From Haliotis cracherodii (Eukaryota), in the NCBI RefSeq assembly GCF_022045235.1, contig NW_027266341.1:9982001-10046000 (forward strand): DNA of 64,000 bases, in the 5' to 3' direction. Each line of letters opens with the position of its first letter. Position 1 is the first letter of the stretch. Of this stretch, positions 11,253 through 55,445 are shown piece after piece. A program made the translations under genes and the position numbers. Under the pieces are notes generated by a model. The model saw only the letters and a list, made by a program, of their open reading frames with translations. It was not told the origin of the DNA and did no database searches.

Positions 11253-11591
11253 TCTTATTCAGGCAAATTATCTCCATGAGTTGTTTCCTTTCAGATGGTC
11301 TGATGTCGACATTGCAAGATGTCAGCTATTCCTGCATGGTCACCTTCAGACAACTCACAGTTGGCGCGACAGTATCTGGTTCCCATACGTTATAATTGGC
11401 GTTAACCATGACAATGACGTTGTTCGGATTGGGCAGTAGCTGACGTTCCAACCAGTCTATGAACACCTCACAATTCATTTCCTTATGATAATCACCAGTT
11501 TTCTTTTCACCTCGAAAACTAGTCCTCAATAGGCCACAGATCACAGGCTCTGGCATACAAAACAATGACATGATTACCTTTACCTGATGGT

Positions 11592-27900: not shown

Positions 27901-30900
27901 GTGCCTCCCAAAGTGCCTCGCCATCTGCTGGCCTCTTGAAAATGTAGATATTTAATTCCAACTACAAAACTTGTTTTTGCACATACTTGGCCAGAGTCAC
28001 TGAAGTGCACATTAAATCACTTTGCATGGACAGAGTGTCACCATCGTCACATAATGTCTTTCTTTAGGTGAGTTTAAAGTTCTTTGATAACAAAAAGGGC
28101 ACAAAATGTTTTAAAACCGATCTAAAATGCACTAACTGAATTCCAACACAGAGTTGGGGAAACTGAAACTGAACCCTCGACAATCAGCAGAAACAAAAGG
28201 TCACCGTGACTCTCTCAATCTCCATACTTTTACATAGACAGAGCATAGCTATAGCATTGCTGGGTGAAATAAAGCCCAGGACCGAACTCCTGTCTATTAT
28301 TGATTATATATTATTACCTGGTAATACTGGAATGGGGATGCGCCCCTTCTCTGTGAGGAATGCAAAGGAGTCTTCTGTTACAGGGGTATGGAAGGGGGCC
28401 TGAAAATGGCATAACAAATATCTTAATCATAATAAGAGTATATACATACAACATGTATGTGTTTTTAATAGTGATTGGCTGGATATTTTCAGTCAGCATG
28501 CAAAGGAATTGACATTCAGGATAATGAAATGTAGTTCATAAAATGATTGATCTAGGCACAGAATTACTCTCCCTCATGACTTTGATATCAACAACCAGTT
28601 AAAGAGTGTCTTTTGAAAGAGATTTCAGCATCGATCTGATAGCATGAGGCTAAATCCTAAGACAGGGGGTGTTAACTCACCCCGATCTCAAAGACGTCAC
28701 TGATAACATGGGTCTTAATCCTATGACGGGTTGTTTAAATGTTAACTCTTCCCCCTCTCAAGGTCATCTAACAGATAGCATGGGTCTAAATCCTATGACA
28801 GGTTGTTAACTCACCCCCCTCTCAAGGTCATCTGATAACATGGGTCTAAATCCTATGACGGGTTGTTAAGTTAACTCACCCCCTCTAAAGGTAATCTAAC
28901 TGATAACATGGGTCTAAATCTTATGATGGGTTGTTAACTCACCCCCCTCTCAAGGTCATCTAACTGATAATATGGGTCTAAATCTTATGATGGGTTGTTA
29001 ACTCACCCCCTCTAAAGGTCATCTAACTGATAACATGGATCTAAATCTTATGATGGGTTGTTAACTCACCCCCCTCTCAAGGTCATCTAACTGATAACAT
29101 GGATCTAAATCTTATGACGGGTTGTTAACTCACCCCCCTCTCAAGGTCATCTAACTGATAACATGGGTCTAAATCTTATGACGGGTTGATAACTCACCCC
29201 CCTCTCAAGGTCATCTAATTGATAACATGGGTCTAAATCTTATACCGGGTTGTTAACTCACCCCCCCCTCAAGGTCATCTAACTGATAACATGGATCTAA
29301 ATCTTATAACGGGTTGTTAACTCACCCCCTCTCAAGGTCATCTAACTGATAACATGGGTCTAAATCTTATGACAGGTTGTTAGCTCACCCCCCTCTCAAA
29401 GTCATCTAACTGATAACATGGGTCTAAATCTTATGACGGGTTGTTAACTCACAAGGTCATCTAACTGGATCTAAATCTTATGACGGGTTGTTAACTCACC
29501 CCCCTCTCAGGGTCATCTGACTGATAACATGGATCTAAATCTTATGACGGGTTGTTAACTCACCCCCCTCTCAAGGTCATCTAACTGATAACATGGATCT
29601 AAATCTTATGACGGGTTGTTAACTCACCCCCCTCTCAAGGTCATCTAACTGATAACATGGATCTAAATCTTATGACGGGTTGTTAACTCACCCCCCTCTC
29701 AAGGTCATCTAACTGATTACATGGGTCTAAATCTTATGACGGGTTGTTAACTCACCCCCCTCTCAAGGTAGTCTGGAAAGAGTTCACTAATAGCATGGGG
29801 CTCCACACAGGCCCCAGACAATATGTGCCCACCTGGAAAAAGGAAAAATTGATTTTTTTCCAGACAGAATTATTTGCAAGCCTAAACTTTGCATTAATTC
29901 TAACACTGATTATGACAACAATAGATTTTATCAAAGCATATTTCATTTAAAAATGTTTAATCAAAATGTTCGACTCTTCTTGTAATTGCTTGAGTACTGC
30001 TGGCTTTTAATAGTACAAAACTGTATCAAAGAAATAAACTTTTTGATCTGACGAACCAATTTCTGCTGCCTTCTCCACCAAACACACACGGAGTTCCTTC
30101 CCCTGCTCGTTGGCCATCTGTTTGAGGCGACAGGCAGCTGACAACCCTGATGGCCCTCCACCCACGATGACAACATCAGCCTCATCTGCGAAGCGCTCCA
30201 TGTCCACATCTTCAGGGAAAAGGACAGTAATTTTTAGTGAAACGTCAGTATTTTTCAAAAAATGATGAAATAGTGAATTATGTTTCATGCTGCAGTTAGG
30301 AACATTCAAACTCTGTAACGGGAGTGGTCTATTATAAATTCTTGGTGAGGAACACAAAGACCGATCCATGCATGAGAAAGAAAGCAAGAGAGAAGTTCTC
30401 TACAATCTATATGCTCCAGAATTCAGTCCAAAGATTACAACCCGTGAAGATCGGGGTAGAATAGGTCTTCAGCAACCCATGCTTGCCGTAAAAGGCGACT
30501 ATGCTTGTCGTAAGCGGCAATTAACAGGATTGGGTGGTCAGGCAAGCTGACTTGGTTAAAGCATGTCATCGTATCACAATTGCGTGGATCGATGCTCATG
30601 ATATCAATCACTGGATTGTCTGGTCCAGACTCAATTATTTACAGACCGCTGTCATATAGCTGGAATATTGCTGAGTGCGGCGTAAAACAACAAACCAACC
30701 AAAGATTACAATCGCATTAGAACGGTTTACAACATATTTACACATAATACATACACATTCAAAGAGCATCGGTGGAGCGACACTCAATCTGCCAGTCATC
30801 ACATTACAACTACATGTATCAGATACTCATTAAGCATCTTAATATGAGCCCCGAATCACATACGTTTAAATTTCTGCTACTATCATTATATAAAACTAAG

Positions 30901-33900
30901 AGATGAGTAAAATTCAAAACGTCTTTCATGTCACATCAAATATTTGCCCTCTTAAACTTAAAGCTTAATTAGCATGGAAAGCATATTGAGTTATCAATAG
31001 TTAGAGACAAGCTGAGTCCTGATAATAGACTTCCATCTGATGTTGACTGGACTGTCTTGAAACCCAACTCAAGTTGGCAAACCATAAGCTTGCTATCATG
31101 ATCTTAAAATATGCAAATGATGTCAACTAGCCATGCTAGAAGAAATTACATTTAATCAGCTCCATATATCAATACATGGCCTACTTGCAGTAAAAGCTAC
31201 TGTCACCTGCAGAGGTTTTTCTCTGTATGAGTCCTTATGTAAACATGGCTGCAAATCAACTGGCACTGTATGATAAATGGGGCAGTTAACTAAGACATGG
31301 TATTCCTTCAGTTACCTAGCTGAATGAAACTATGGCTTCAACAATCAGTTCCTCATGACTGTAGGAAACAGGTGTTTGTACAAGGCTGATATCATGTATG
31401 TACTTGTATGTGTTGTAAACATGGTTAAGTGAATTTAGAAACAAATAAAGGAAATGTTTTCTCGGACCAGGCAGGTCACTTTAGATCCTGCACGATAGTC
31501 ATTATTATTGCTTCTAAAAATATATTTGTCAAATTCCCTGCTTCATATGAAATGTATGAAGCATATTATCATGTTATTATAAGAGAACGTTACAAAAATC
31601 CAAATTTTGGATAACAAATATTTTTTTCAAAATTTGGCCAACCATAAACATGATAAAAAACTTAGTTGAAAATCCTGGCTATCCCATGTATTTTGCTTGC
31701 CAAAAACCCATTTCAAATGCCTAATTCAATTATTATTCCAAATGCATTACATTTACAAAATAAAAACACTCAGATTACAAGTACTTAATGTCATTATTGT
31801 ACCTATCAGCATGATCAGACAAACCTTTCAGAGACCTCAAAGAAACTCAAAAGTGACCTGCCAAGACCCGAGAAACATTTCCTTGTTTCTATAGCCTTAC
31901 AACATGTACAATAACATACATGATATCCATCTTGTACATGTCGTGTTGACACTAACACGTTCCTGACAACCATGATAATGAAAACCTGCCACCAGGAATA
32001 AGTATGTGGCTGACCTTTCCACCTTGGATCCTTGTCTCGAGGATGGATGGTATAGTGTGTGGTGATGCGAGGTGTTGTCTGTGATGAGTATGCACGACTC
32101 TGGTACAAACACTGACGCACAAGACGAGCTGAAATCAACAAGACATGAGTCACACAATAACACTATAGTGAGTGAGTGAGTGAGTTGGGTTTAACGCCAC
32201 TTTTAACATTATTCCAGTTATATCGCGGCGTGTCAGCTTAATGTGGGAGGAAAGCCCGAAGTGATGCAGGTCTCAGACGTTTACCACTTCGTTGAAACCC
32301 ACCAGCACGGGTATGGTGCTGACAAACCTAGAAACATAATCGGGGCGAACCGGGATTCGAACCTACAATCAATAACACTAGAACCATGATAAAACTGTAA
32401 GCTCCACCATCAATTTTCAATCACAACATCAATTTGAAGAGACATTTCACAGTGGAATGAATACTGTTTCTAGATCAGTGTTCAATACTGTTCAAGGTGT
32501 GGGGATTATCTCCTTATTTGGAGCACAATGATAACAGACATCATATAGGTAGGAATTAAATTCCAACATGTCAAAATTTAAGTAGTTTCTGTTGGAATGG
32601 TTATCTCAACATGCTCAACTAATAGTAATTTTGGTTGGGATTATCATGATCAGTGGAGTAGTTCCAGTTGCTAATGCTGTCAACTAATGCTGTCTGTGCC
32701 ATAAAATAATCCAACCTGGCTCTTGGCTGCATCATAATCATTTCATTAGATTTCTAAGTTCAGTTTACCAAACATAATTTTACTAGACTCAGACTTCAGG
32801 CTAATGTTGGGAGCACTGTCAAAATCATGTCTCAGGCAAGAGTGCCTGTTCCATTTGTCCACTGATTCCTATCAATAATAGGCTTACTGTGAATGACAGT
32901 TTAGGCGATGTTGCAATGTAATTCAAGTAAGTCAGTGCATAGTATTAAAATGCCTTTCATGTATTTAACATGATAAGGATTAAAAAGAAGTCCAACAATA
33001 CACATTCTGGGGGTAAAGAAGTGAGCCCATGCAATATACATGTATTACTATTAGGGCCAAAGAAGTCACTTCACACAATATTAGAGCTAAAAAAATCTCT
33101 GGAAGCAACAATAAGCTATAAGGCAGGTAAATCGACATTAAAATACAGAAATTTAGAAATTGGCACTAGTCCTCTAGTCCTTACCAAACTGCCCAACTGA
33201 TAAGATATCACGGGGACTAGCAGAAATGTGATATTTTTAAGGGTTTTGCTATATGTTATCATTATAAGGACTAGCTCGTGGACTAAAAATGTTAGTTTCT
33301 ACTGCTGTAAATATGACCTTCATTGCTCAGGAAGTAGATTTTGCTATTTCCCGCTCAATTTCCTGTGCACATACACAAAATGGCTGTAGGCATCCCGATA
33401 TTCTAGTAATTAATTAAACTATAGAAGTTGGGATAGACATCAGTTATATAACTTATGTAAGTTATATAAGTTATATAACTTGTGTCAGAGTACACTTGCT
33501 ACACTAACATACAACAAACAGAAAACCTATTCATGTTGCTAAAGCTTAAAATACACTGGAATGCAGACTTGTGATATCAATGTGACAGTGTACAATGTTT
33601 CTAGTGGGTAAGAGATGCAATCACTAAAATTTTAGTGATTGGCAGCAATTATTATCATCCCTTTCAGGCATAATTTGTTATCAGATATTGCAACATTCCG
33701 TCATGGTGTATCAGGAAAAGGAAGAGAAATATCCTTCCATCCACCTTCATAAAATCCAAAGGTTCCACAAGACGCTGTACTCTGTCACGTCTACTTGTTA
33801 TTGTCATTGGACTTTGACCGGAATATTCATACAGTGAAGCACTGTTCGTTACTAGGATTACTGTAAACTCGTAATTTTTAGGATAAAGGTAGTTCAAAAA

Positions 33901-34039
33901 CACGTGTTTTAAGCAATTCAAACTTTTGTCTGTCAGCATTTAACACGTTAATGCCACATACACAAACTGCATCACAGAAAGCGCAAAAGGTTTGTTTACC
34001 TGATGCCAAGACACGTCTGTAGCTTGTATAAGACGCCAT
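15989..34039 (-). CDS. ETFDH: Electron transfer flavoprotein-ubiquinone oxidoreductase, mitochondrial; complete, 14 coding exons, 610 aa
   Basis: Exons in transcript order: 34000-34039, 32015-32128, 30057-30209, 29756-29832, 28318-28399, 26547-26665, 25842-25919, 25078-25290, 24671-24745, 20746-20889, 19588-19756, 18705-18887, 17145-17366, 15989-16152. All introns are GT-AG with compatible phases; total 1833 nt. Motifs: FAD-binding [29 protein letters not shown], 4Fe-4S RFCPAG and [14 protein letters not shown]-terminus [10 protein letters not shown]. Confidence 0.97.
17476..17902 (-). mobile_element. hAT-type MITE in an ETFDH intron
   Basis: Same TIRs; 8-bp TSD GTCTGCAC (17468-17475 and 17903-17910). 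Another decayed copy at about 26128-26525. Confidence 0.92.
20152..20422 (-). mobile_element. SINE family D, full length, in an ETFDH intron
   Basis: 15-bp TSD TAAAGTAACCTTAAC (20137-20151 and 20423-20437). Confidence 0.9.
22000..23332 (-). mobile_element. Decayed DIRS-like retrotransposon (RT/RNase H remnant) in an ETFDH intron
   Basis: RNase H-like peptide [12 protein letters not shown]...ASGMWS...[14 protein letters not shown], typical of DIRS elements; perfect 30-bp inverted repeat at 22055-22084 and 23303-23332. Confidence 0.75.
24100..24614 (-). mobile_element. SINE family A with a local partial duplication
   Basis: SINE body segment occurs twice, each time preceded by TGAAGGAGCGTAGTGTACACAGGAC (about 24070 and 24248). 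Confidence 0.75.
26916..27515. repeat. 50-bp minisatellite (about 12 copies) derived from the family C 5' head
   Basis: Unit CGGGGACCAGTTCTAACCCGGAATCCCCATGGGGAGACCAGCATAGGCTG, period 50; adjoins a family C body at about 26790-26915. Confidence 0.92.
28640..29768. repeat. About 64-bp minisatellite (about 18 copies) containing the ETFDH exon-4 end and donor site
   Basis: Unit CTCACCCCCCTCTCAAGGTCATCTAACTGATAACATGGATCTAAATCTTATGACGGGTTGTTAA; the last unit overlaps the exon at 29756-29768. Confidence 0.95.
30441..30698 (+). mobile_element. Retroposon family C (SINE-like, non-tRNA head), full length
   Basis: 13-bp TSD CCAAAGATTACAA (30428-30440 and 30699-30711). Other copies at about 5415-5630, 18215-18475, 19070-19270, 25365-25594, 40292-40558, 43982-44242, 49420-49620, 57320-57592, 58936-59217 and 63197-63455. 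Confidence 0.9.
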
Positions 34040-36105
34040 TGTTATTTTCAGATGCGATGACGGCATGTTGATAAATGCTTAAATGAAAAACTATGTTTTC
34101 CTATAAATTATTGAAATTTATACACGAAAACTCTTTTCATAACGAATGTAAAGATGTTCAGTGTTATAACAATATTACGTGTTAAAAGTTGTTGCGATAC
34201 TGTATGTCGTAAACTGTCAGAGTTTTTTCCCTTGGGCCAACATTTTCATATTAATTTTCATAACTTAGCGGGTTAGTTGATTTGCACGCGTAAAGTATTA
34301 CTGGTGATGATTTTATCATTATTATTCTATTCTAAACTTATCTACTGAATGTGTTGTTTGTTTTGTGTTAGGTTCAATGACAAGAGTAATGTAGGTACGT
34401 GGAGGACTTCTAGGTTTGAAATGTGTGAACGTCCTTATTTGACGTATAAAAAATACACTGCTATGAAACCATTATTATGAAAAGTGTAAAACTTTGTTTA
34501 CGTTTTAATTGGGGTGGGGGATAGTGGGTTGGGGATCTTTCCGAGTCAGAATATATAATTTTATAAACAGTTTATTCACATAAATGTACTTGTTTCAAAT
34601 ATGAATAGCGCCATTTAGTTTTATTCTTTCATTTACTTGTTACAAAACACATTCAACCGGATAAATATGAGACGAAAAAAGTTAAACTGAATGGTTTTAA
34701 TGTTAATCTACTCAATCATTAATCCATTTATAAATACATGATAATCACTTCATTTTCATTTAATGTTGCATATTTTAAAAAATGTTTTCTTCTTTTGTTA
34801 ATCATCAATCACTTTGTACATACTATTTTGATACCCTCCGGGGCGATGGGGTAGCCTTGTGGTTAAAGTGTTCGCTCGTCAGAAGATACGGGTTCGATTC
34901 CCCGCAATGGTACAATGTGTGAAGCCCATTTCTGGTATTCCCCGGAACTGAAATACTGGAATATTGCCCAAACGGCGTAAAACTATACTCACTCACTTGA
35001 TAGACTACTCCTTACAACAAAGTAGTGGTTTTTAAAAATGGGTACTCTACATTGCTGTCGATCGAGTGAACTTAAGAATAAATATCATATATATGTTTTG
35101 AAGGGTGCAATGACATGACAAGGGGTTGCTTGCTTTCTGAAATTTAGATATTTTGTTCCACGCGCATTTGCGATATTGAGTTTACACGAATAATAAAGCT
35201 AACAGTAATTGTTAAGTAAGGGCAGGTAGATTATATATCATTTAACCCCAAACCCCACTACAAATATCGAAGGAGAAAAAAACTGAAACGAACAAACAAA
35301 AAAATAAAAATCGTCATTTGTATTTCATTATGTGTTTTTCATTTCAACAACCGGAATTTTGGAATTGTTTTGGTAAATCTTTTAAAAACATATGCCAACA
35401 AAAATTAATAAACATGAAATATGTTTGAATGAATGAATAATCATGGCAATCTCCGTACTGTGATTCAGCCACTCCAGTTCTCCACCATCCAATACCAGAC
35501 CTTGAGGGCAGCCCGAAGAGATGAAGGTCGCTGACAAGTATGGTGCATACAGACCAAGGATAGATTCAGGACAAATCAGGATTCGAACCCACGATTAGCA
35601 GATCCTGTCACGTTTAGGTAACGCAACTCTGTAATGCGGGCCATCAGTACCCCTGACTTTTGTACACATTCATGTGCTCCTTCTCAACTATAGAACTCAA
35701 TTTCCATTGCTTGTTCTAAAAACACAAAGGCCAGCAATTTTTAACAAATGTTTATTAAAAATATAGTGGCCGTATATGCCGTACATAAATAAAAAACAGA
35801 TATATGTTCATTTTCACGAGTGCGCCGTGCAATGCCGCTTTTCGTGCGTATATATATTTATTTAATACAAGATGTATTTGTAAACATTTTATGTATGAAA
35901 GAATATCGTTTATCACATGTTTGAAAAAATGAAAACTATAATAATATTATATACATATATATACTGCATCTGGAATTGTGCCTCACATACATTTAAAATA
36001 TAATGAGTATACAATTAAAACTCAGATCAATGTTCGACAAAGTTGGATTATTCAAATATCCTCTCCCTTTCGCTTGCGAAACAATAGTCTCTCTGGAGTC
36101 GCTGT

Positions 36106-36854
36106 TTATGTGACAACATAGGCCTTGTCGGCAGGGAACTTTTTCCCGAAGTTCTTCTCATACTTGTCTGCCTCGCTGGCGTAATACTCTGTTCTGTACA
36201 TCCAGATGGGAGGACAGCAGGCAGCGGACGGAACGTGGCTCTGGCCGTCGTTGTGGTAGTTGTTGGGGTTTGGCGGCGGGGGAATCAGGTCGTCCAGGAG
36301 GAAGGGCATGCTCGGGGGAGCCTGTCCTGGGTCCACATCCACCCATCTGACGAAAGGGTCATCCTCGGGGCCGTTGTAAGGTTCTGAACAAACACAGTCT
36401 ATTAACATCACATAGATCAAAAGAAATATTTACCTCATAAGCATCACGACGTAGGTGGATCCAGAGGGGGTCTCCCCGTTTGAAAACAAAATGTATGTTG
36501 CAGACCGCCCCCACCAAACACACACAAACACGCACGCATGCACACGCACCGGTACACACACACACACACACGGTGTGCCCCGTATATGTTTCTGGGTTTG
36601 TCTGGTCCATATACGTGCTGGTGGGTCTCACCAAAGTGGTAAACATCTGAGACCTGCATCACTTCGGGCTTTCTTCCCACATTAAGCTGACACGCCGTGA
36701 CATAACATAGCAACGTTAAACCCAATTCACTCTCTCACTTACTCACTCATTCGCCTGCCGAAATACAATGAGTAAAAGAGTCGCACTTACCCAGGGATTT
36801 CTTGAATTTCTTGATTTCATGTACCGCCATGGCGAGAAAGGTCAGAAATATCAT
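36106..36854 (-). CDS. Uncharacterised small protein, paralog A (113 aa), 2 coding exons
   Basis: Exons 36791-36854 and 36106-36383 (GT-AG, phase 1); putative non-coding exon with donor at 37161/37162; AATAAA at 35751-35756. Protein MIFLTFLAMAVHEIKKFKKSLEPYNGPEDDPFVRWVDVDPGQAPPSMPFLLDDLIPPPPNPNNYHNDGQSHVPSAACCPPIWMYRTEYYASEADKYEKNFGKKFPADKAYVVT. Exon structure, reading frame and stop position are shared with paralog B. Confidence 0.8.
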
Positions 36855-37244
36855 CTTGGTTTGAGGTTCTGGAAAACAACAACAACTTTAGAAAGGTATT
36901 TCGTTCTTCAAAGAATAACGAAATAAATAGACCGCCCTATATCCTTTTGGTATTTGTTCTGATGCTAGCATCTTCGATAATGGTCAATAAGACAGTATTT
37001 TGTTACACAGATAAAACTCTTATCAAAATATATTCTGACTGAAATATTAATTTCATTTTAACGCTACGTCAATAAATTTCAATTTGACCAAGATGAATAT
37101 GAAAGCACAGCTAAACAGTTAAGCCAACTGGCTCACAGCAACAAACGCGTCCATAGCTCACCTTTTCCAGATTAAAGGGTTCAGATTTCCCGCTCTGATG
37201 TACTTGTATGTCTGACAGCATCGACACCTTCAGCTGGTCTGATT

Positions 37245-37320
37245 GTTGTGACGTCATAATCAACGTCACATGACTCTACGTATCCACTTGGCCTGGCAGG
37301 CACATTGTGACGTCATACAG
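37245..37320 (-). promoter_or_regulatory. Paralog A upstream region: two CRE palindromes and an E-box-like site
   Basis: TGACGTCA at 37249-37256 and 37308-37315; GTCACATGAC at 37265-37274. The first CRE and the E-box align with the paralog B promoter. Confidence 0.55.
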
Positions 37321-37518
37321 TAAGTAAAGATCCCTCTCCCGATAGTGTAGAAATTTGTCTGTTTGATTTTATTTGTATAAAAGCGGTCTACAAAAGCCTA
37401 TATGGAGAAGCTATTTGACGTATATAGCCCTCCATGTGGTCGTGTACACCAAAAGTGGAAGTGTCCGCTACGAAGGGAAAGTTTAAATTTGTCATTCGGT
37501 CTAGCACTGTGATACATA

Positions 37519-38377
37519 TACTCAACAACAAAAGTTCTACAGTGGTGCAGACAGCGTCTACGCGGGACGGCCATGCAGTGGGGACAAGTTCTATTCACTG
37601 ACGAGTCTCGTTTTCACCTCAGCCACAGCGATTGACCGATTCGAGTGTACCGACATCGAGGTGAACGTCAATCATTGTGTCGTGGAAGAAGATCGGTTCG
37701 GGGGCGGCAGCGTTATGATATGGGGTGGGATAACAGCAAGACAGAGGACCCGTTTGATAGTGGTAGAGGGAAATCTCAATGGACAGCTCTACCGCGACGA
37801 GATCATCGGCCCTGTTGTTCTACCGTTTTTGCGTCGTCATGGCCCAGGCATTACCTTTCAACATGACAACGCCTGGCCTCATATTGCTCGACTTGTTCAG
37901 GATTCCCTTCAACAAAACAACGTGAATGTCATCCCCTGGCCGGCTCGCTCCGCTGATCTCTCACCAATCGAGCACATGTAGGATGAGATGGATCGGCGCC
38001 TACGACGTCAACCACGTGTTCCACAGACACTCCAGGAACTTCGAAACATGCTCCAGCAGATATGGACAGATATCCCACAGGACCTTGTGCGACGCCTGGT
38101 CCATTCCATGAGACGAAGATGTGTTGCTTGCATCGCAACCAGAGGTGGACACACACGCTATTGATTTGTAAATTGACATTTTGGCATGTTCATGTTTTTT
38201 GGGTTTTTTTTTTTTATGAAATCACGCATTTTCTGAAGTCAGGATGGCAAATTAAACCATTTGAACACGTACAGGAGTCTTTTATTTGTTGTAAACCGAA
38301 ATTGTTTCAGAGTTGGTTAAAAACATAACTTTGCATTAAATCTGATTCAATGTCACAGGAACTTTTGTTGTTCAGTA
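37519..38377 (+). mobile_element. Internally deleted Tc1 (DD34E) DNA transposon
   Basis: TIRs TACT(C/G)AACAACAAAAGTTC with TA TSDs. Transposase remnant VLFTDESRF, GGGSVMIWGGI, FQHDNA-(34 aa)-PIEH, GGHTRY, with stops and a frameshift; the N-terminal half is missing. Confidence 0.93.
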
Positions 38378-41300: not shown

Positions 41301-41534
41301 AAGTCCTTCTCATTATTGTAGCGAAATGTCTGATATACACTCTAGAATTCAAGGCGTCTTGGAAATATATTATATATCTAATTCTTATATAAATACACCA
41401 GCATGTATAAGACACGTTTCGTGTTAAAGCAAAAGATAGAAAGGCAATCTTAAGCAAACGACAATGCACGTATTTCCCATTCATTCGTAAATGAACACAA
41501 CGCAACGATGACAAACTCGCTGAGTAACTACTTA

Positions 41535-41565
41535 GTGCCACGTGAGGTTGATTATGACGTCACAA
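41535..41565 (+). promoter_or_regulatory. Paralog B upstream region: E-box and CRE
   Basis: CACGTG at 41539-41544 and TGACGTCA at 41555-41562, about 80 nt before the first donor site. Confidence 0.55.
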
Positions 41566-42096
41566 GCAGCGGGAGGTGTCGATGCTGTCAGACATACAAG
41601 TAGATCGGTGCGGGAAATTTGAACCTTATAAACTGGAGTAGGTGAGCGATGGACGCCATCTGTTGCTGTGAGCCAGTTGGTTTAACTGTTTAGCTGTGCT
41701 TTCATATTTCCATGTAGTTTCTTGGTCAAATTGAAATTTATTGACGTTGCGTTAAAATGAAATTAATGTTTCAATATATTTTGATAGAGTTTTATCTGTG
41801 CAACAATTACCTATTATCGAAGATGCTAGCACTAGAACAACTCTTCAGATCCGCTCACATAGTCCCTCAATAATCTGTCCTTAATGGATGTTTATTGCCA
41901 TAGTGAAAACTCAATGTTTTAATCTCTTACCCAAATAATGTTTTATGACTGAGTATTTGAGTGCCACGAATCTACTGGATCCTGTACTTTAGTCGACATG
42001 GGGTAGTCTTAGTTCCTTAATTATTCTTTCTGTTTGGAGAAATAAATACGTCTTCATAGCTCATTTGTTTTATACTTCAGAGCGTGATTGGTCAAG

Positions 42097-42787
42097 ATGA
42101 TTCTAATGACCTTTCTCGCCATGGCGTCCCAAGAAGTCAAGAAATTCATGAAGTCTCGTGGTAAGTACTCCACTAAAGTATTGTCACGTGTCCTCTATCT
42201 GTCATAGAGCAATCAAATTCTCGATTTTCACGAGAGGGGCATCCTAGTATCTAGCAAATAGTTCCCGCAAAAAACCCAACTCTTTCCATTTCCACTCCTA
42301 AGAATCGGCGTAAATCTCTGGGTACATTTAGCTAAGCGATCTTTGTATTAAGTGTATTTGTCGGACCACATCATCAACGTGCTACACGTGACTCAAATGA
42401 CGACACGTGACAATGAAAGGAAAGGCGAATGTGTGAGACAGAAAAGCAAATCCCAAGACTAAAATCGATTACACAGAAGAAATAAAAATACAGGATGCTA
42501 ATGAAGTAATTTTTTTTATTTAATTGAATCCATATGGCGTTAATAGCATAATTGCGTTTGTTTTAGAGCCTCACATCGGCCTTGAGGATAACAGTTTCAA
42601 CAGATGGAGGGATATGGACCCAGAACAGGCTCCCTACCTCCTGGACGACCTGCTCCCACCACTTCAGCACCCCAACAACAACGACAACGAGGACGACGGT
42701 CTGTTCACTGCCTACCGCCCTCCCATCTGGATGTACAGAACAGAGTATTACGTCAGTGAGGCAGACAAGGCCTTCGTTGTGACATAA
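42097..42787 (+). CDS. Uncharacterised small protein, paralog B (94 aa), 2 coding exons
   Basis: Exons 42097-42160 and 42567-42787 (GT-AG, phase 1); putative non-coding exon with donor at 41641/41642; AATAAA at 43157-43162. Protein MILMTFLAMASQEVKKFMKSREPHIGLEDNSFNRWRDMDPEQAPYLLDDLLPPLQHPNNNDNEDDGLFTAYRPPIWMYRTEYYVSEADKAFVVT. Confidence 0.8.
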
Positions 42788-45061
42788 ATACAGTACTGGC
42801 TCCAGAAAAAAGTAGTGCCGTTTGCGTGTGGTGCACTGGCGTTTAATAATTTTACAATGGAATTTGAAGGTCACAGAACACTGATAACATGCGTATTTAA
42901 TGTTCAATGCATTTTGATATTTGTTAAAACCAGATTCAGTATTTATAATACTGAATGAATCCGTCATATGATGTTATTTACAACTTTACAATAAGCCATA
43001 TTGTCCGTCATGAAGCGATAACATATTACAGAATATATTTTTATTTGCTATTTTTTAATGAACATTATTGTTACAAATGGCCTTCTTTGTTTTCCATGTA
43101 GTATTCCAAGATACTGTAATCTCTTTTCATTCATACATGTACAGAACGTTTGTTTTAATAAATATCTCTCATGGTTCAGTGAAAGTGTTGCCATAGAAAC
43201 AAAACTGAGGTCATGTTTATTATGTGTTGCAAGCTTCATTTTTATGTCATCAAATCTCCTTTCCAGATATTAGCGACTGACCTACAGAAGCAATGTTCCA
43301 GATTTTGTTCAGTTACTTAATTTTGCCCAGGTGGGATTCTGTGTTAGAACAGGTCTCAAGTGATATAAGCTTGTTGCTTGGTGACTGTTTCTTCCATGTT
43401 ATCGAACCCTGATGGCATGGGACATTGCTCATTGTATCAATCACTGGTTTGTCTGGTCAACTGGACTAGTACATGACTATGAATGCACAATGCCATATAG
43501 AAAGTGGTCAAATGTAACAAATGTTATATTTGGGATAATACTTTCTTAGTAAAGTACAGATTCTCATCCTGATTTGGGTTGAGTCCCGTAATCTTGCACT
43601 CTTGTATAACGACATACAAATAACAACACATCATAATCTGTGACAATTCGCAGGATGAACAGGACTTTTACGAGAAAGAGTATACTGATAAATCAATTTA
43701 CAAAGTCATTAACAATTTCACAATGGTGCATCCCCGTGGTGCCCAGTTCCAATTAACATAAACAAATGGACTCAATGGTAATATCTTTATTTACATGATA
43801 TATATGATGTATGTACAAAGTCTGCCACATTAACTGACAATGCATCAAACACAGTACTGATGTAGAAAATAACAACCTTGGACATCAGGAAGTACGCAAC
43901 AGTTAATCAAACTATCAGTTGGATCCATCCATGGCCAAATGACAAATTACCACTGATACTGCATTGCTGCATTGGCAAAAGATCCGTGAAGATCCAGGGT
44001 AGAATAGATCTTCAGCAACCCATTCTTGCCGTAAAAGGCAACTATGCTTGTCGTAAAAGGCGACTAATGGGATCGGGTGGTCAGGTTGCTGACTTGGTTG
44101 ATGCATGTCATCGATCCCAATTGTGTGGATCGATACTCATGATGTCACTCACTGGATTGTCTCGTCCAGACTCCATTATTTACAGACCGCCGTCATATAG
44201 CTGGAATATTGCTGAGTGTGACATAAAAAACAAACAAACAAAGCATTGGTAAAGTACAAACAGATATCATGACAAGAAAAAATACTGATGACTGTCCGAA
44301 ATGCACCTTGTTTGCAGAGACGTGTGGGTAATATACCCAATATGTTGCAAATTCATATCAAACAAAAACAGCTGTACCAATATTTGCGTTAGACTATAGG
44401 ATCAGAAAGAAGTGTAACCAAGCGATACAAGCAAACAGCTTGAACATCTTATATTGATAGATGCAGTAGTGGCAATGACAAACATTTTCAATATGCTTAC
44501 CATGTTGAAAATTATGAATCCGTGAGCATGTTGTGACACAATTGCTTGAGACAAATGCATTTTGACAGCTTATAAAAAAATAAAAATTCAGAATAAACAA
44601 AAACTGGATAATCAAAGCGATATGGAGAATATATATATATATCATATATATATACAACATATCAATTGTCATTACATACTTTTTCATAATTCCATACTTT
44701 AAACTGCATAATGAGCAATAGGTTAATATTGTTCTTATGGCTGCTGTTTAAAATTGAATAAAAATTCTATGAGAATTACTTGACACAATAGCTGGAATAT
44801 TTGGCCATGTGGTTTAGAGGAGATGTCAAAATGTTACACAACAGATGGACATACAATGCATCACACCATGAGATCACATGTGAAGAGCATTGCAAGACTG
44901 TTTAATATCTAAGCCACAACATTTGTATCAAAATGCATAAAGTTCTTAGCTGGAGTAACAGGGACAACAGCATCGTAAGTTAAAAAGTTTGATTTCACAA
45001 TTCACAGAAGCAACTGAATAATTTATAGATGTTTATAATATATCAAGATGCAGGAACAAGG

Positions 45062-45512
45062 CTCTAGGTCATCGCTTCTTGAAAGTACAAGGATCTAGGT
45101 CATCGCTTCTTGAAGGTACATTGATCCAGGTCACTGTTTCTTGTAGACACACATGGGTCCATAATATCGCTACTTGGTGATACATTGATCCAGAAAATCG
45201 TTCCTTGTAGACACATGGATCTAGGTCATCGCTTCTTGAAGGTACATGTGTCTAGGTCATTGCTTCTTGAAGGTACATGTGTCTAGGTCATCGCTTCTTG
45301 AAGGTACATGTGTCTAGGTCATTGCTTCTTCAAGGTACATGTGTCTAGGTCATTGCTTCTTGAAGGTACATTGATCTTGGTCACTGCTTCTTGAAGATGA
45401 ATGGATCCAGGTAACTGTTTCTTGTAGATACGTGTCCAGAAAATCACCTTCTTGAAGATACATGTCCAGGTCATCGCTATCTTGGTTATCGCTTCTTGTA
45501 GATACAGGGGTC
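45062..45512. repeat. 31-bp tandem repeat (about 14 copies) of the RRP8 terminal codons and stop, in the 3' UTR
   Basis: Minus-strand unit resembles CTAGATCCATGTACCTTCAAGAAGCGATGAC; the true gene end is CTGGACCCCTGTATCTACAAGAAGCGATAAC. Confidence 0.9.
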
Positions 45513-48500
45513 CAGTTCAATGCTTGAGTTGAGAGGGGCTTCCTTCATTCCACGCACCTTCTTAAAGTGGAACAGGTAGAACATCTTGTTGGAGGTGTCC
45601 TGAAATATTATTAAGTTGTCATTGTGAAGTACTTGAATCAACAAAGGACCATTTCTTTGTCACAAAATGCAACAATATCTCAAATGTCAACCCCATAGAC
45701 CTGATAAACAGGAAATGTGGGATTAAAACCCTGAACCAGCATATTCTGTCATCGCTAAGGCATAGACTGTCTGACTATTGATCAAAATAGCTTCCAACAT
45801 CAGGGTTTAACCTTGACTACATGGGATCCCCAATAATTAGTTATAAGGGTCCTTGCATGGAATATGAGGGTCCTGTAAAGTAGTGAAATGGTGTTGTGTA
45901 CTGTACGTTTGGATAATTACTTTAGAGCCTGAATGAATCAATGATCATGTGGACAGTGGCCATGATTGATGGAAGAAATGACAGATGCCCATAACTGCTC
46001 CTGTTGCACTGTAGGTACAATGAACATTACTGTGCATCTCTTTGGATGCAGGATGTACCCAATCTCAACATTTGTGCATACAGGATGCACATTTCTGCGT
46101 CGCATAAAACCCTGCAACATCAATACTCTCTTGCATCCAATGAGATTTGCAGTGGATATTATTTCCATCTATTATCAAAATCCTGATTATCCTTTAAAAT
46201 TACCATCCATTCCACATTTTCATCAAAACCATCCCCAAAACCACCATGAGCAAGACCTACCTTGTTGACAATTTCAAATCCAAGTTTTTCAACTTTTGAT
46301 ATGAAAGCACCAACTTTCTGAAAACGACTCTCAACTTCAGCAATCATCATTACGCCCCTGAAACAACAAAACAAACAATATTCAAAATAAGTGAAAGTTG
46401 TTTAACTCCACAGTCAGCAAGATTTCAACTATATCATGGCAGCCTGTAAAAAATCAATGTGGACCAGTAAACCAGTTGTTGACTCCATGAGGGTGAAATA
46501 TCACTGAAGGTGTTATCGTCGGCACAGATACTACAGAAATGTACCCCAGGTACGATTTTGTATACAGAAATGTACCCTAGTCAAAATCAAAATACAGTAG
46601 ACTACGGCTATAACGAACTCGAGAGGACCACTAATTTTAGTTCATACTAACCGCAGTTCGTTATATGCATACATACAGCATATATACAACAAATGGTCGG
46701 GACTAAAAATAAGTTTGTTATATCCGTCAGTTCGTTATAAGCGTGTTCGTTATAAACATAGTTTACTGTACAGAAAAAGTACCTGGTACCCGAAACGGCG
46801 GGTGAGTCCATATTCCCCAACATTAAACCAAAACCAGTTCATGTTTAGTTCCAGTTCGCCTGATTAGTATGATTACGAATGTATGCATGCATCGCGAATA
46901 TTGCCAGATTATTACATTAATGTACGTACGTCACTGTGTGTGATTGTTTCCTATATGATACGCTGGAATGCAGCTTAATTCAAAAGCTTCGCCTGACGAA
47001 CGCATACTGCCACGTTAAATGTAACGTGGTTTGGCTACAGGAAGTGACGAATACCTAAAGAACCGATTACAAGCATTGCGCCCTTCAACGGAAAGGACTC
47101 AACCTAGGGTACGTTTCTGTATTTTGATTTTGGCTAGGGTACATTTCTGTATACAGAAACGTACCTGGAGTATATTTCTGTAGTACCTGAGCCGACAATG
47201 ACCCCCTTCAGCTCAGGTGACACCTTGTACCCACCAAATCCTCATTAGTCTTCCAACAAGCAGTGGGCAGTGAGACCTATCTCCACAGGGTGTAGACTAT
47301 TCACAAAAACAAAATGTCACAATCTCATTAAAATCAGATCTTAGTTTTCGCTACTGCAAAACAAAGATCTGAGGACATCCCTTCATGGGTCACTTCAGAA
47401 TGATCAAAAGATCATTCTGGAATGACTTATAGTTGGCCTAGATTGTATGGATATAATCATAAAACCTGTAACTGTCGTTCGGAATACCCTCTGTTAAATA
47501 TTTCGAGGTTGCATAGTTAGAAATCACATTCCGACTGTCACTTTCATCATCTGGTAAGCGACGCTCTGATTGGTTGGATGAAAGGTCGCTCTGATGTGAC
47601 CCGTAATGGGATGTCCTCAGATCTTTGTTTAGCGGTAGCGAAAACTAAGATCTGATTTTAATGAGATTGCAAAATGTCACTGTGCTGTATAACCCATGAT
47701 AGAGTTGTCAGTTTTAAAGCAACACTTCTTGGTATGATGAAACAAAAGATGAGCTTTCAGTTACAACCTATTATCCAAATCAAAATCTAACATAACTGCA
47801 AATATGATTCTTATAGTTTAACTTTCTTTCATCCCTGACTGAACATGCTGAACATAGTAAAAGTCTTACCCTTTTTTGAGAATCCTGTTTGCTTCCAGTA
47901 GGTAGTCAACAAGATTTGTGCCCATCAGTGACAGACAGAACACAGCTACATCCACACACCCAGCATCTAGGGGCACCTGCATATACAACATAGTTAGAAC
48001 CATCAGAGACAGACAGAACACAATTCATCCACACACCCGGCATCTAGGGGCACCTGCATATACAACATAGTTAGAACCATCAGAGACAGACAGAACACAG
48101 CTACATCCCCACACCCGGCATCTAGGGGCACCTGCATATACAACATAGTTAGAACCATCAGAGACAGACAGAACACAGCTACATCCCCACACCCGGCATC
48201 TAGGGCACTGCATATACAACATAGTTAGAACCATCAGTGACAGACAGAACACAGCTACATCCACACACACGGCATCTAGGGGCACCTGCATATACAACAT
48301 AGTTAGAACCATCAGTGACAGACAGAACACAGCTACATCCACACACACGGCATCTAGGGGCACCTGCATATACAACATAGTTAGAACCATCAGTGACAGA
48401 CAGAACACAGCTACATCCACACACACGGCATCTAGGGGCACCTGCATATACATCCACACACCCGGCATCTAGGGGCACCTGCATATACAACATAGTTAGA

Positions 48501-51500
48501 ACCATCAGAGACAGACAGAACACAGCTACATCCACACACCCAGCATCTAGGGGCACCTGCATATACATCCACATACCCGGCATCTAGGGGCACCTGCATA
48601 TACATCCACACACCCGGCATCTAGGGGCACCTGCATATACATCCACACACCCAGCATCTAGGGGCACCTGCATATACATCCACACACCCAGCATCTAGGG
48701 GCACCTGCATATACATCCACACACCCAGCATCTAGGGGCACCTGCATATACATCCACACACTCGGCATCTAGGGGCACCTGCATATACATCCACACACCC
48801 GGCATCTAGGGGCACCTGCATATACATCCACACACCCAGCATCTAGGGGCACCTGCATATACATCCACACACTCAGCATCTAGGGGCACCTGCATATACA
48901 TCCACACACCCAGCATCTAGGGGCACCTGCATATACATCCACACACCTGGCATCTAGGAACACCTGCATATACAACATGTGTTGATATAAACTGTTTACC
49001 ACATAAAACCACTTACCTTTGACATATCACACGCAGTGACTCTTTCATTGACTGAGACAAGGTCAAAGGAATGAACTTTGACCCCAGAGATACTTTGAGC
49101 CAGTCTTGCACTTCCACATCCTAAATCTGCAATGACAGTCTTTGGGGTTCTGAAAAAATACAGTCCAACATTATCATGTTCATAAGCATACTATCTATGG
49201 TTGTCTCGCTTGTCTCAGACTTACAGTTAGCGTTGGGAATCAATTGGGAATTTATCATTTATCAGTTTGTTCAAACTTGTTAGTTTCTATTACTTAAAAT
49301 ACTTGATTTGTTGAATATTGATGATCATGATGATAAATATGTGTTCATGTGTAATTGTTCACAGATCAAAAAAATGTTCGAATACCGTATTTTATATATT
49401 TTGAATAAATAATATTCAAAGGGGAATCCTGGTTAGAATTGGTCCATAGCAACCTATCCTTGTTGGAACAGGCAACTAAATCGATCGATGATCTTCCTCA
49501 GTGATTTAGTTGATTGCGTGCCATCACTCCCTGACAATCTGAAATGCTGCACACATTAATCACTGGATCCCCTGGTCCAGACCTAATTCTATACAACCTG
49601 TCGCCATACAGCCAGAGTAAGCTTTTAAGTTTGGTTTAACACCGTTTTGAACAGCATTCCAGTTATTATTACATCAAGGTGAGACAGATTGATGTGGGAA
49701 GGGATGCATGTCTCAGACGTTTACCATTTCAGTGAAACCCATTAGTGGGTATGGTGCAGACAAACCTAGAAGCATAAACTGGCGAACCAGGACTCGAACC
49801 CATGATCATCATAGGTCTCTGGCGTGCCCAAGGTAGGTAACTCTGCACACAGAATTGTAGCACCTTATTGCTAGAATATTCTGAGTGTGGTGTTAGACAA
49901 CAAAAAAAAAAAATGTGTGACCTTACTTATGCCTGGCGTTGATCTCGTTGATGATGATGTCCAGTGGATCGATTGGCCACTTGCTGACCTGTGACCTATA
50001 ACCTTCGTGATATACATGGAAGGCCTCCTCATCATCAGCAAACAGCTGCGCCGCCTCGGTGCCCGTTGTGGTGTACATCTGCTCATTGAGATAGCGGAAC
50101 CGCGCAGCTGACAGGCGTTCATGCATCCTGTCTGTTAAAGACTTCCCTTGGTTCCTGTCTCTCCTTTTCACTTTCTTCTCGAGGTCCTCCTTCAGAGTGT
50201 CCATCTTTTTCTTCTCAGAGGACATAATTTCTTTCAATTTCTTCACATCAAAATTTTCTTTTGGGGGAGTTTTTATTTTCGCGGGACTGCTTGAGGTGTC
50301 ACTTGTACCGTTTGTAAAACCCTTCTTTTTATTCACCTTCTTAGGTGTTTCTGTAACCTCCACTGATTTTCTCTTTTCTGTTTGTCCATTACCAGAATTT
50401 GTTTTCTTCACAGACTGTTTCTTATCAGAGGAAATGATCTCTTTCAATTTCTCCAAATCGAAACTGTGTTTCTTGGGAGTCTTCAACTTCGACACATTCC
50501 CAGAAACATCACTCTCAGATTTTGACTTTTTTTTCTGCTTCTTTCCACCACCACTTTTTTCAACAACATTATCTTCTGAATTCTCATCAGTTCTATTTTC
50601 ACTAAGTGTAGAGACATTCATATTCACTTTTTTATTTTTCACCTGTGGACTTGGACGATCAGAAACCTCTAAATTCTTCTTACGTTTCTTTTTCTTCTTT
50701 TTGTCTAAAGATTGTCCACTAACTGGCTTAGTTTCGCCAGTATCACCCATGTTTTTCTTTAACAAAACAAATTGGCCTTTCACATCTGGGTCTGAAGCTA
50801 CAGCCACACTGCTTGTGCTCCCATCGGTGCTGTCCGATTTTTTACTAGCATCAGCTAGATGTTTGTATTTGTTCTTCTTACATGTCTTCTTCTTATGCTT
50901 GTGTCTTCTTTCCTTCCTTGTCAGGGGGGTATCCCCTCCAACTCTACTTTCATCCTGCCCCTGGGTTTCTTGAATGTTTAGCTTCTTAGATGCTGACTCA
51001 TCATCTTTGTCTTTTTCTCTACTTATTTTTTTCCTTTTTAATTTCTTCTTCTTGTCACCTTGGGAATTTTCAGACTGATCAGGTTTTGCAACATTTTCTT
51101 GTGAATTAGGCACATTTTGTTTCTTTTTCTTCTTTTTCTTTTTAGCTTTTCCCTCGCTGCTGATATCCCCAGCACTTTCTGGAGATACTGATATTTTCTT
51201 CTTCTTCTTCTTGCTCACTGAATGACTGTCCTTGTGAAGGTTTTGTTTTCCAGATTTTGCTACTACTGGTGTAATGTTTGTATTTCTCTCCTCACTGTTC
51301 TTATTTTTCTTTTTCTTCTTCGGCGTAGGACTGGTTTCGTCAGCATGTTTTCTCTTCACGGGAGACTTTGTGTCACTGGTGTTTGACAAGTTTGGATCAG
51401 AATGCTTCGACTTCTTTTTCTGAAAATACAAGTGTAATCAAATATGTTTTTTCAGAGCAGATTTCAGTGAATACTGGACCCATTACCGGTAAATATGATA

Positions 51501-52767
51501 ACCCAGGCATAAGATATATACAGTCAAGTCCCATTAATCTGACATTGTTGGTTGCATATGATTATGTCGGATTAACGAGTATGCCAGATAAACAAAATTA
51601 GGTAGTACAAACAATCGTGATTGAAAATTAGACAACTACACGATAGATAACGATATGAACACCTAGGAAAAGGAAAAGTGAAATATACATATTGTTGAGT
51701 TACATTGTCAGATTTTCTAATCATGCAACCACTAAAGTAACACAAAACTACTGTTAAGGACTGTCTGAGCGATTCAAACTTGACTGATTTTTAAAGCATA
51801 GATTTTGTATCCGATTTTAATGAGATTAGGTAATCTAGGCAAGTGATTAATCTGTTTTGTTTATTTAAAGCAGTAATTGTTTATTGTTAAGCAAGTTTAT
51901 CTCTGCAGCAGTTGAAATATGCAGCTACTCGCTGCGGGGCTGTGTACTTGCGGGCAGATGACCATGGAGTACGCTGATCACTGTGTTGGATTAATGAGAC
52001 TGATTAATGAGTGATTTCAGCAATTCGTTGCAAATTAGGTGTGTCGGAGTCGGAGTGCGAGACTGTCGGATTAATGGGTCTAAATAGCACTGATTAAATC
52101 GGTTCCCATCATTTGTGTCGGATAAAGCCGATTGTCAGATAAACGAGTGTCGGATTAACAAGACTTGACTGTATACAACCATGGGATCCCATTTGCTCAG
52201 AAATGTTTGTTTGCTGTGAAACGCTGTACTGGTACTCAGCAATATTCTAGCATTGGGCCAATCACACAGAGACACAGATATATGACAGATATTATGAGCA
52301 CCGATCAACGCTGTTGGGGTACGATGACATGCATTCAACCACTAAGCCTGCTCAAATTAGTAAGTGTTTCAATGAGTGAATGAGTGAGTGAGTGAGTGAG
52401 TGGATGGGTGAGTGAGTGAGTGAGGAAGGATGGCCTTCCAACAATGTACCCATGCAGGGAATTGAACCCAGGCATGACTAGTGAATACTTTAACCACTAG
52501 GCTACCCCACTACCTATTGTTCAATCTGAAGCACTGAAGTCACAGTTTGTGATATGTAAATTAATAATATTTCTTACATCAAGTAAGACCTTAACAAGTA
52601 GCATTGATGTTGTATAAGTGGACTTTCAGTAAAATGCCCACGGCAAAAGAATCTTTCCTGACATTACTGACCTTATTTCTCGGAGGAGTTGGTGTGACAG
52701 GGTCAAACAGAGAAGACGCAAGATGGGCCGCCTCGCCATCCACATTCCAGTCCTCGTTGTCAAACAT
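45486..52767 (-). CDS. RRP8: Ribosomal RNA-processing protein 8 / nucleomethylin (SAM-dependent rRNA m1A methyltransferase); complete, 6 coding exons, 679 aa
   Basis: Exons 52672-52767, 49927-51419, 49017-49149, 47870-47976, 46261-46357, 45486-45599; GT-AG, total 2040 nt. Motifs [25 protein letters not shown] motif [30 protein letters not shown] and terminal PCIYKKR. Long Lys-rich N-terminal region. Confidence 0.96.
46504..47211. mobile_element. MITE with TIRs of about 100 bp, carrying a nested Tigger-like MITE (46595-46768)
   Basis: Outer TIR CTGAAGG..TTATCGTCGGCACAGATACTACAGAAAT... is mirrored at about 47105-47211. The inner CAGTAGACTA...TAGTTTACTG element with TA duplication splits the left TIR. 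Confidence 0.8.
47320..47669. mobile_element. Long-TIR MITE with 10-bp TSD (Mutator-like)
   Basis: TIRs of about 80 bp starting CAATCTCATTAAAATCAGATCTTAG; TSD CAAAATGTCA (47310-47319 and 47670-47679). Confidence 0.85.
47923..48980. repeat. Compound minisatellite (78-bp and 37-bp units) containing the RRP8 acceptor site and exon start
   Basis: About 20 copies of minus-strand ATATGCAG|GTGCCCCTAGATGC; it fills nearly the whole intron 47977-49016. Confidence 0.95.
51521..52171. mobile_element. Tigger/pogo-like MITE in an RRP8 intron
   Basis: TA|CAGTCAAGTC...GACTTGACTG|TA termini and repeated GTCGGATTAA subterminal motifs. Confidence 0.8.
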
Positions 52768-52820
52768 TGCTGTACTCTGTCCTGTACTCAGCTCTCTCTG
52801 TCAGCATGCATCAGTTGGCA

Positions 52821-53470
52821 GACCTGCAGACGTGAGGGAGTTAGTGAGTGGACGAGTGAGTGAGTGAGTGAGTGACCTGCAGACGTGAGTGAGTTAGTGA
52901 CCTGCTGAAGTGAGTGAGTGAGTGAGTGACCTGCTGAAGTGAATGAGTGAGTGAGTGAGTGACCTGCTGAAGTGAGTTAGTGACCTGCTGAAGTGAATGA
53001 GTGAGTGAGTGAGTGACCTGCTGAAGTGAGTGAGTGACCTGCTGAAGTGAGTGAGTGAGTGACCTGCCGAAGTAAGTGAGTGAGTGATCTGCCGAGTGAG
53101 TGAGTGAGTGACCTGCCGAAGTGAGTGAGTGACCTGCTGAAGTGAGTGAGTGAGTGACCTGCCGAAGTAAGTGAGTGAGTGAGTGATCTGCCGAGTGAGT
53201 GACCTGTCGAAGTAAGTGAGTGAGTGAGTGAGTGACCTGCCGAAGTGAGTGACCTGCCGAGGTGAGTGAGTGAGTGATCTGCCGAAGTAAGTGAGTGAGT
53301 GAGTGAGTGACCTGCCGAAGTGAACGATCTGCCGAGTGAGTGAGTGAGTGACCTGCCGAAGTGAGTGACCTGCCGAAGTGAGTGAGTGAGTGACCTGCCG
53401 AAGTGAGTGAGTGAGTGACCTGCCGAAGTGAGTGAGTGAGTGACCTGCTGAAGTGAGTGAGTGAGTGAGT
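52821..53470. repeat. Compound (GAGT)n / GACCTGC(C/T)GAAGT repeat at the acceptor of the first RRP8 coding exon
   Basis: Expanded tail of the family-B SINE at 53471-53625, interleaved with copies of the minus-strand GCAG|GTC junction. Confidence 0.9.
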
Positions 53471-55059: not shown

Positions 55060-55445
55060 ACTCTCACCTACATAAAAACGGAAGTACAACTTCGCCATGT
55101 CAATCATAGACCCGATAACCCATTTTGACGAAACCATTATTACACTCGATTATCCATTTTTGCACACATTACAATCGGAAAGCCCTCAAGCTTGAAAGAA
55201 TGTCAACAATTTGATGATTTCGAGTTTCATGCGATCTACAAAAGCCATGGATAATTTGGAAACGTAAAATATCACCCCAGTGAAGGATTTACAAGCTGGT
55301 ATCCGTGTGAGCTTAAATAAGACCTCATTCTTACACCGACAGTGAGAATACTCCCGCTTACTCCGGAAACCGCTTCCAAGTTTCCAAGGAGGTCAAGCTT
55401 GGGTGTTATTTATTTCGGAAACTTTATTTACCTCAACAAGCAATC
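55060..55445. promoter_or_regulatory. Putative bidirectional promoter shared by RRP8 and ILK
   Basis: Divergent genes. Candidate RRP8 non-coding exon donor (TAG|GTGAGA, minus strand) at 55067/55068 would join the acceptor at 52823/52824. ETS-like CGGAAGT at 55079-55085 and YY1-like CGCCATGT at 55093-55100. Transcription starts cannot be seen from sequence. Confidence 0.55.

Follow-up and report, generated by a model that had tools for sequence, protein, structure and literature searches.

Short tandem arrays at exon edges, three shown and one predicted, in two genes of Haliotis cracherodii

Do tandem repeats arise more often at the edges of exons than elsewhere, and how does a gene that carries them remain intact? 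The question is raised by a 64,000-nt stretch of Haliotis cracherodii DNA (the window; all positions are window positions), in which a first-pass annotation had placed four of the five long tandem arrays on a functional boundary of a gene. Analysis of the window with TRF returned five arrays longer than 400 bp (Table 1), and the four short arrays in ETFDH and RRP8 copy the exon edges of those genes, three of them demonstrably and one by prediction. The annotation therefore stands for an ETFDH donor, an RRP8 acceptor and the last RRP8 codons, whereas its fourth boundary is a predicted acceptor only.

Table 1. Positions of the arrays, genes and neighbouring features in the window, with the span returned by TRF where there is one
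Feature	Position	Strand	TRF span	Description	Basis
ETFDH	15989..34039	-		14 coding exons, 610 aa, zero internal stops	gene model + Pfam
ETFDH coding exon 4	29756..29832	-		end seeds array A; matches ETF-QO 2GMH 79-102	
ETFDH next coding exon	28318-28399	-		matches 2GMH 103-129	
RRP8	45486..52823	-		nucleomethylin-type methyltransferase, PF05148; 6 coding exons, ATG 52767, 679 aa, zero internal stops	gene model + Pfam + homology
RRP8 coding exon 4	47870..47976	-		genuine acceptor, last array B copy	
Unique 5' part of array-bearing RRP8 intron	48964..49016	-		53 nt to first AG	
Array A	28629..29769	-	28629-29769	64-bp minisatellite, 18 units including the genuine one	TRF + unit decomposition
Array B	47922..48974	-	47922-48974	37-bp and 76-78-bp units; 19 decoy acceptors before genuine one at 47976	
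Array C	52821..53470	-	52832-53470	compound (CACT)n + CAG/GTC units, 17-53 nt (about 25 bp)	
Array D	45052..45518	-	45052-45484	31-bp copies, n=14, 58-81% identity	TRF + unit decomposition
Array E (exception)	26916..27513	+	26916-27513	50-bp intronic minisatellite, about 250 nt from nearest exon	
SINE-like repeat	53452..53619	-		(CACT)n tail continues into array C	

Gene models and arrays in the window

The reading frames of both genes run without internal stops in spite of the arrays (610 aa for ETFDH and 679 aa for RRP8), as the annotation had maintained, and GT and AG are present at all modelled introns of the two genes. In the Pfam search, five RRP8 pieces lined up with successive parts of PF05148, and exons of ETFDH matched the ETF-QO families; the three of 12 pieces that gave no match were two short ETFDH exons, both of which could be placed by their matches to 2GMH, and the gene at 2-214. 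Splice sites were scored with a matrix built from 24-25 sites of the window only, and the scores are therefore rough.

Each unit of array A consists of 14 nt of ETFDH exon 4 and 50 nt of intron 4. The first donor, at the exon end (29756), is functional, because the two flanking exons match consecutive residues of 2GMH. The same 9-nt donor as at the genuine site is found in 14 of the 17 further copies, GT is kept in 16 of the 17, and the most diverged units are the distal two (77-80%). The acceptor of this intron is unique sequence that is unrelated to the array units. Use of any of the 17 decoy donors is predicted from this haplotype to give a premature stop at 130 aa.

Array B contains 20 copies of the acceptor of RRP8 coding exon 4, of which the last is the genuine one. 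Its 37-bp unit holds about 7 nt of intron and 30 nt of exon, and its 76-78-bp unit 24 nt of intron with a branch-point motif and 54 nt of exon. The edge itself is confirmed by homology, since the exons on either side of the array match PF05148 73-115 and 116-149, as well as 2ZFU 69-107 and 110-142. AG is present in all 19 decoys and the branch-point motif in 6 of them. Thus the view of the annotation that the copies form decoy splice sites is borne out at both genes, by the genuine 9-nt donor in 14/17 ETFDH copies and by the branch-point motif in 6/19 RRP8 decoys. For all 19 RRP8 decoys a stop would precede the normal end, since the exon-adjacent unit is 77 nt long and contains a stop; a perfect 78-mer preserves the frame and has no stop, and other alleles with perfect 78-mers could differ in the outcome of decoy use.

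The array-bearing RRP8 intron starts with a unique stretch whose seventh codon is an in-frame stop, and retention of this intron is predicted from the sequence to end the protein at 580 aa. The intron minus its array measures 53 nt, whereas none of the 23 further modelled introns is shorter than 224 nt; in the alleles of X5 and X15, described below, the same unique part measures 60 nt owing to 7-nt insertions. Its donor has the top score of 25 and a sequence unrelated to the unit, which indicates that the intron was there first and was lengthened by the array. The annotation had also proposed that such arrays offer a route to new exons and introns. We see no sign of this, as every decoy in this haplotype leads to a premature stop and the RRP8 donor is strong and unrelated to the unit.

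Array D lies behind the RRP8 stop codon (45486-45488), where the PF05148 match ends at the edge of the array. Its unit corresponds to the last 10 RRP8 codons and the first base of the stop, and TGA is recreated at most unit junctions. The first ATTAAA is at 44906, and the array is likely to lie wholly inside the 3' UTR. It is not a splice signal and sits behind the stop, so its description as an array on a gene-processing signal does not hold.

The annotation had further counted two RRP8 acceptor arrays, and the count is sound for array B. The edge copied by array C is predicted, its unit includes only 3 nt of exon, and the array is fused to a SINE tail. The 23 copies of array C precede a 5'-UTR acceptor predicted at 52823, which has a branch-point motif and a score of 10.8, within the range of -2.8 to 14.6 for the 24 window acceptors. 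The array has its start within the simple-repeat tail at the 3' end of a SINE, which is the mark of a SINE-tail microsatellite and applies to array C only; a CACT run also closes each of the six other SINE copies printed for the window. Array C probably arose as a SINE-tail microsatellite and took in a predicted acceptor which the SINE tail helped to form. A (TCAC)n run at 59396-59419 (+), identical in motif to this tail, forms the pyrimidine tract of an acceptor in the plus-strand gene described below and may represent the unexpanded starting state for array C.

Array E, the exception, is similar to the terminal part of a dispersed repeat of about 260 bp. Copies of this family seed tandem repeats at 26916-27513 (the 50-bp array, from its end), 57323-57410, 58975-59019 and 44025-44066, and 22-bp repeats occur within several copies.

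The window holds other features of interest. RRP8 lies head to head (55040-55450) with a plus-strand ankyrin-repeat gene, the start of which is in the window and which we take to be ILK-like; an intron of this gene contains a 187-N gap at 61132-61318. A non-coding first exon of RRP8 is predicted, with its donor near 55070, and contains an upstream ATG. Two small paralogous two-exon genes are found in opposite orientation at 36106-36869 (-) and 42081-42787 (+), and each adjoins a related repeat of about 280 bp (37000-37282 and 41529-41806). An inverted pair of about 630 bp with 95.6% identity (9454-10077 and 10624-11254) carries a dispersed repeat in each copy. A transposase-like frame interrupted by a stop is present at 37505-38161 (+), presumably of Tc1/mariner type, and decayed reading frames in ETFDH intron 9, at 22200-23250 (-), are retrotransposon-like in our estimation. 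At 1-205 (-) there is the first exon of a membrane-anchored protein, which we assume to resemble PGRMC; the piece gave no Pfam match.

The RRP8 acceptor array in other sequencing runs

Part of RRP8 was found in 17 of the 21 listed runs, and six runs were compared with RRP8 stretches holding about one array unit. Three of them (X7, X14 and X15, from organisms A, C and B, respectively) were treated as RNA on account of their exon-exon joins, although none of the runs with RRP8 is on record as RNA; in all three, the upstream exon-exon join appears as a loose end, as in cDNA. The DNA and RNA runs come from different individuals.

Array B is present under three organism labels, with unit-to-unit junction contigs in X7, X14 and X15 and deep coverage of the unit in the DNA run X10 (organism B). 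The DNA run X5 (organism A, from a separate study) holds an allele with a 7-nt insertion and substitutions relative to the window, and in this run contigs of the 37- and 78-type units reach a depth of 108-146 compared with 30 for the flank, so array B is not an artefact of the assembly. The 37/78 depth ratios and the unit variants differ between X5 and X15, contig depth being no measure of copy number. Sampling of about 1/100 of the raw DNA run X19 left the unique parts of RRP8 uncovered.

In X14, a 1185-nt contig joins the upstream exon via GT..AG to a single unit that is followed by genuine exon 4. As this contig joins letters of the unit to those of the genuine exon, the genuine RRP8 acceptor is in use. 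The X7 data connect the upstream exon with the start of a unit and skip the unique part of the intron. The array-junction contigs of X7 and X14 are shallow despite the many copies (depth 4-7 compared with 21-24), the unit-to-unit contigs of X7 reaching 6-7 compared with 24. The X7 and X15 contigs span the RRP8 stop and the 16 nt behind it. We infer the downstream RRP8 exon joins from the depth of one contig on three exons.

The X15 run presents a different picture. One contig of 1863 nt has the upstream intron spliced out and runs unspliced through the unique part of the array-bearing intron into the array, and a contig of a 78-nt cycle has a depth of 195 compared with 11.5-17 for the exons (11-17 times), a ratio similar to that of about 12 estimated for the DNA of X10, which bears the same organism label. 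These data hint at many array-bearing transcripts in the X15 sample, one of three RNA-like runs, but no ranking of gene parts can be drawn from contig depth, and a short spliced path lying next to a deep repeat may be lost in assembly. No spliced contig was found at the array intron in X15, which is not evidence against splicing, as contigs drop variants; likewise, the introns neighbouring the array intron are not covered in the contigs of the RNA-like runs, and contig data of this kind are not evidence either. When three in-frame 78-bp units were used as a protein query, there was no match at E <= 0.001 among 6130 candidates; RRP8 itself was missed as well, and the result is uninformative. 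For VNTR-tuned splicing, as suggested in the annotation, X15 is one weak hint.

Placement, origin and tolerance of the arrays

To judge the overlap with exon edges, we used a null with 65 boundaries in which seeds lying wholly inside exons were rejected. The probability that a seed spans a boundary was 0.03-0.08 for the whole window and 0.04-0.12 for its genic parts, and the probability that at least four of five arrays do so was 3e-5 and 1.4e-4, respectively. For at least three of five, the corresponding values were 1.2e-3 and 3.8e-3, and with RRP8 counted once the probability of two in three was 0.028. Four of five would be expected by chance in about 3 of 20,000 five-array windows, and three of five in about 77. 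None of the 12 short TRF hits lay within 200 nt of a boundary. The non-random placement proposed in the annotation is thus upheld within the window (P between 1e-4 and 4e-3), but chance alone would produce such an overlap in a few windows per genome, and because this window was chosen for its edge arrays it cannot prove a genome-wide bias.

Two points of the annotation carry no weight here. It described the copying as 'outward'; whenever a tandem duplication crosses an edge, the exon stays intact and the extra copies come to lie on the non-coding side, and we discarded direction as evidence, since it is a geometric necessity for a donor, an acceptor or a stop alike. Survival had been offered as one of two explanations of the pattern, but it cannot give the excess alone, as the null already drops the exon-internal seeds. 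With purging accounted for in this way, the excess, if it is real, requires that duplications start near exons more often.

On balance we consider it probable that the arrays are exon-edge tandem copies of the type known as mirages, born of local duplication and mostly tolerated, with the genuine site mainly spliced. The first step was likely a local duplication of 25-78 bp across an exon edge. Short shared letters at the junctions may have guided it, with 4 nt for the 37-mer and 1-2 nt for the others; for array A, no clear junction microhomology was found. Growth likely followed through slippage or unequal exchange. The excess at edges likely reflects duplication that is commoner in or beside exons, which are GC-richer DNA, with wholly exonic events being purged. 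The GC content is 54% in ETFDH exons and 41% in introns, but arrays A and D, at 42-43%, are near the intron value, so that GC alone is not the whole cause. The fact that a stop codon was also hit hints more at the neighbourhood of exons than at the splicing machinery. Because the units contain intron sequence, an origin from spliced cDNA or from exon circles was ruled out.

Such arrays are likely tolerated since the exon remains whole and the genuine site is mainly spliced, the repeats themselves being likely ignored for the most part. Exon definition would select the copy that adjoins the exon, and decoy-spliced RNA with premature stops would be removed by nonsense-mediated decay, an established fate of RNA of this kind. 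Further observations weigh against this explanation. The unspliced contig and the deep 78-nt cycle in X15 indicate that array B may not always be silent, and, as regards a bias in origin, the sample comprises five arrays, of which RRP8 carries three, and the window was selected for the trait.

A simpler view is that these are ordinary minisatellites free of any edge bias which have piled up by chance in a window picked for it. The window counts expected by chance and the gene-level P of 0.028 leave room for this, as do the 12 short repeats away from any edge, the large share of SINE tail in array C and the lack of a splice site in array D. The in-window P values speak against it, as does the occurrence of the same structure at several amphioxus loci, as described in two papers (PMC3087553, PMC3902484), and we regard chance as unlikely. 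Assembly artefact is barely credible. The gap in the window marks it as a scaffold, in which exact copy numbers may be off, but the units are set apart by numerous substitutions and indels, arranged in ordered blocks, and, for array B only, unit junctions recur in X7, X14 and X15 and deep units in X5 and X10. The birth of an intron or exon in progress, by way of a duplicated AG/GT proto-splice site, is highly improbable. CAG/GT is found in the units of arrays B and C, the perfect 78-mer would extend the frame, and a birth model has been put forward both for mirages (PMC3087553) and for internal tandem repeats in humans (PMC2812944); but the donor of the array B intron shows that the intron predates its array, all decoys in this haplotype give premature stops, and the repeat would land inside the methyltransferase domain. 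Intron gain of this kind would draw both intron ends from the duplicated unit, whereas the donor at array B and the acceptor at array A are unique sequence.

A further possibility is that the arrays act as allele-dependent brakes on splicing, whether selected or as a side effect, such that more complete decoy acceptors delay the removal of the RRP8 intron and less full-length protein is made. The selective lack of splicing in the X15 contig, the depth of its 78-mer and the retention of array B under three organism labels would fit, and there is a precedent in the ABCA7 VNTR beside a donor, for which read-through transcripts are described (PMC13747324). This evidence comes from a single run, and from contigs rather than reads, in which depth does not order the parts of a gene and a spliced path may go missing; the array-junction contigs of X7 and X14 are shallow, the DNA and RNA derive from different individuals, and there is no sign of selection, so we find a brake distinctly improbable. 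It is also quite unlikely that two bolder claims hold together, namely that abalones preferentially duplicate exon edges and that the RRP8 acceptor array, being old, variable and present in three organisms, brakes splicing, with alleles rich in 78-bp decoys retaining the intron or splicing in-frame repeats into a large share of transcripts. Mirage-type copies that are mostly tolerated remain the favoured reading.

Comparison with known systems

The closest parallel is offered by the 'mirages' of amphioxus, minisatellite-like duplications of intron-exon boundaries described in Adh3 and in the globins BflGb6 and BflGb9, with units of 10-160 bp (PMC3087553). According to the same paper, they occur at donors and at acceptors, many keep AG/GT, splicing is mostly unaffected and the end units are less homogenised (PMC3087553); they are unstable in length, their mechanism is called unclear and an intron-gain model is offered (PMC3087553). 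Further amphioxus mirages, in troponin C and PGBD5, are described in a second paper (PMC3902484). In the abalone, the units of arrays A and B straddle an exon-intron boundary of their gene, as those of array C do by prediction only, while array D spans a stop and not a splice site and can be viewed as a stop-codon analogue. The units (64, 37/78, 31 and about 25 bp) and the 14-24 copies are of mirage size, GT is kept in 16/17 array A copies and AG in 19/19 array B decoys, and the divergence of the distal units of array A is similar to the exclusion of boundary units from homogenisation described for amphioxus (PMC3087553). The abalone arrays differ from those of amphioxus in the mollusc host, the stop-codon array, the compound array with a SINE tail and the hint of retention in one RNA run.

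Human genes provide further comparisons. The 31-bp VNTR of CBS, c.1444_1467+7(16_21), comprises an exon end and its donor in 16-21 repeats (PMC2630376) and, as judged from the title of a reference, is linked to lower CBS activity (PMC2630376). In CBS 844ins68, a 68-bp intron/exon junction is duplicated, and splicing favours the site that preserves the exon (PMC2630376). An exon edge is repeated or duplicated in these cases as in the abalone, but they are, by that account, single human loci with known population variation. Internal tandem repeats at human exon-intron boundaries are reported in connection with segmental duplications and cryptic splice sites (PMC2812944); these belong to young paralogues and often give new introns or alternative transcripts, as presented there, whereas here the genes are single-copy housekeeping genes and there is no new intron. 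For the ABCA7 intron-18 VNTR (PMC13747324) and for human splicing-associated repeats (PMC10078293), length is stated to alter splicing in some cases and to give premature stops. The ABCA7 repeat is described as adjoining a donor and not as a copy of an exon edge, and its effects were measured in cohorts, compared with the hint from one run here.

A search of the open-licence literature found neither mollusc mirages nor a genome-wide test for enrichment at exon edges. None of the papers found explains how mirages originate, and a mollusc with four arrays in two genes is well suited to such a test. The arrays are, moreover, a natural experiment in the choice of the spliceosome among about 20 near-identical sites, and if the hint of retention is true, repeats of this type would supply a farmed animal with heritable variation in the splicing of its housekeeping genes. 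Taken together, the comparison indicates that the structure is of an already known kind, to which the mollusc arrays add.
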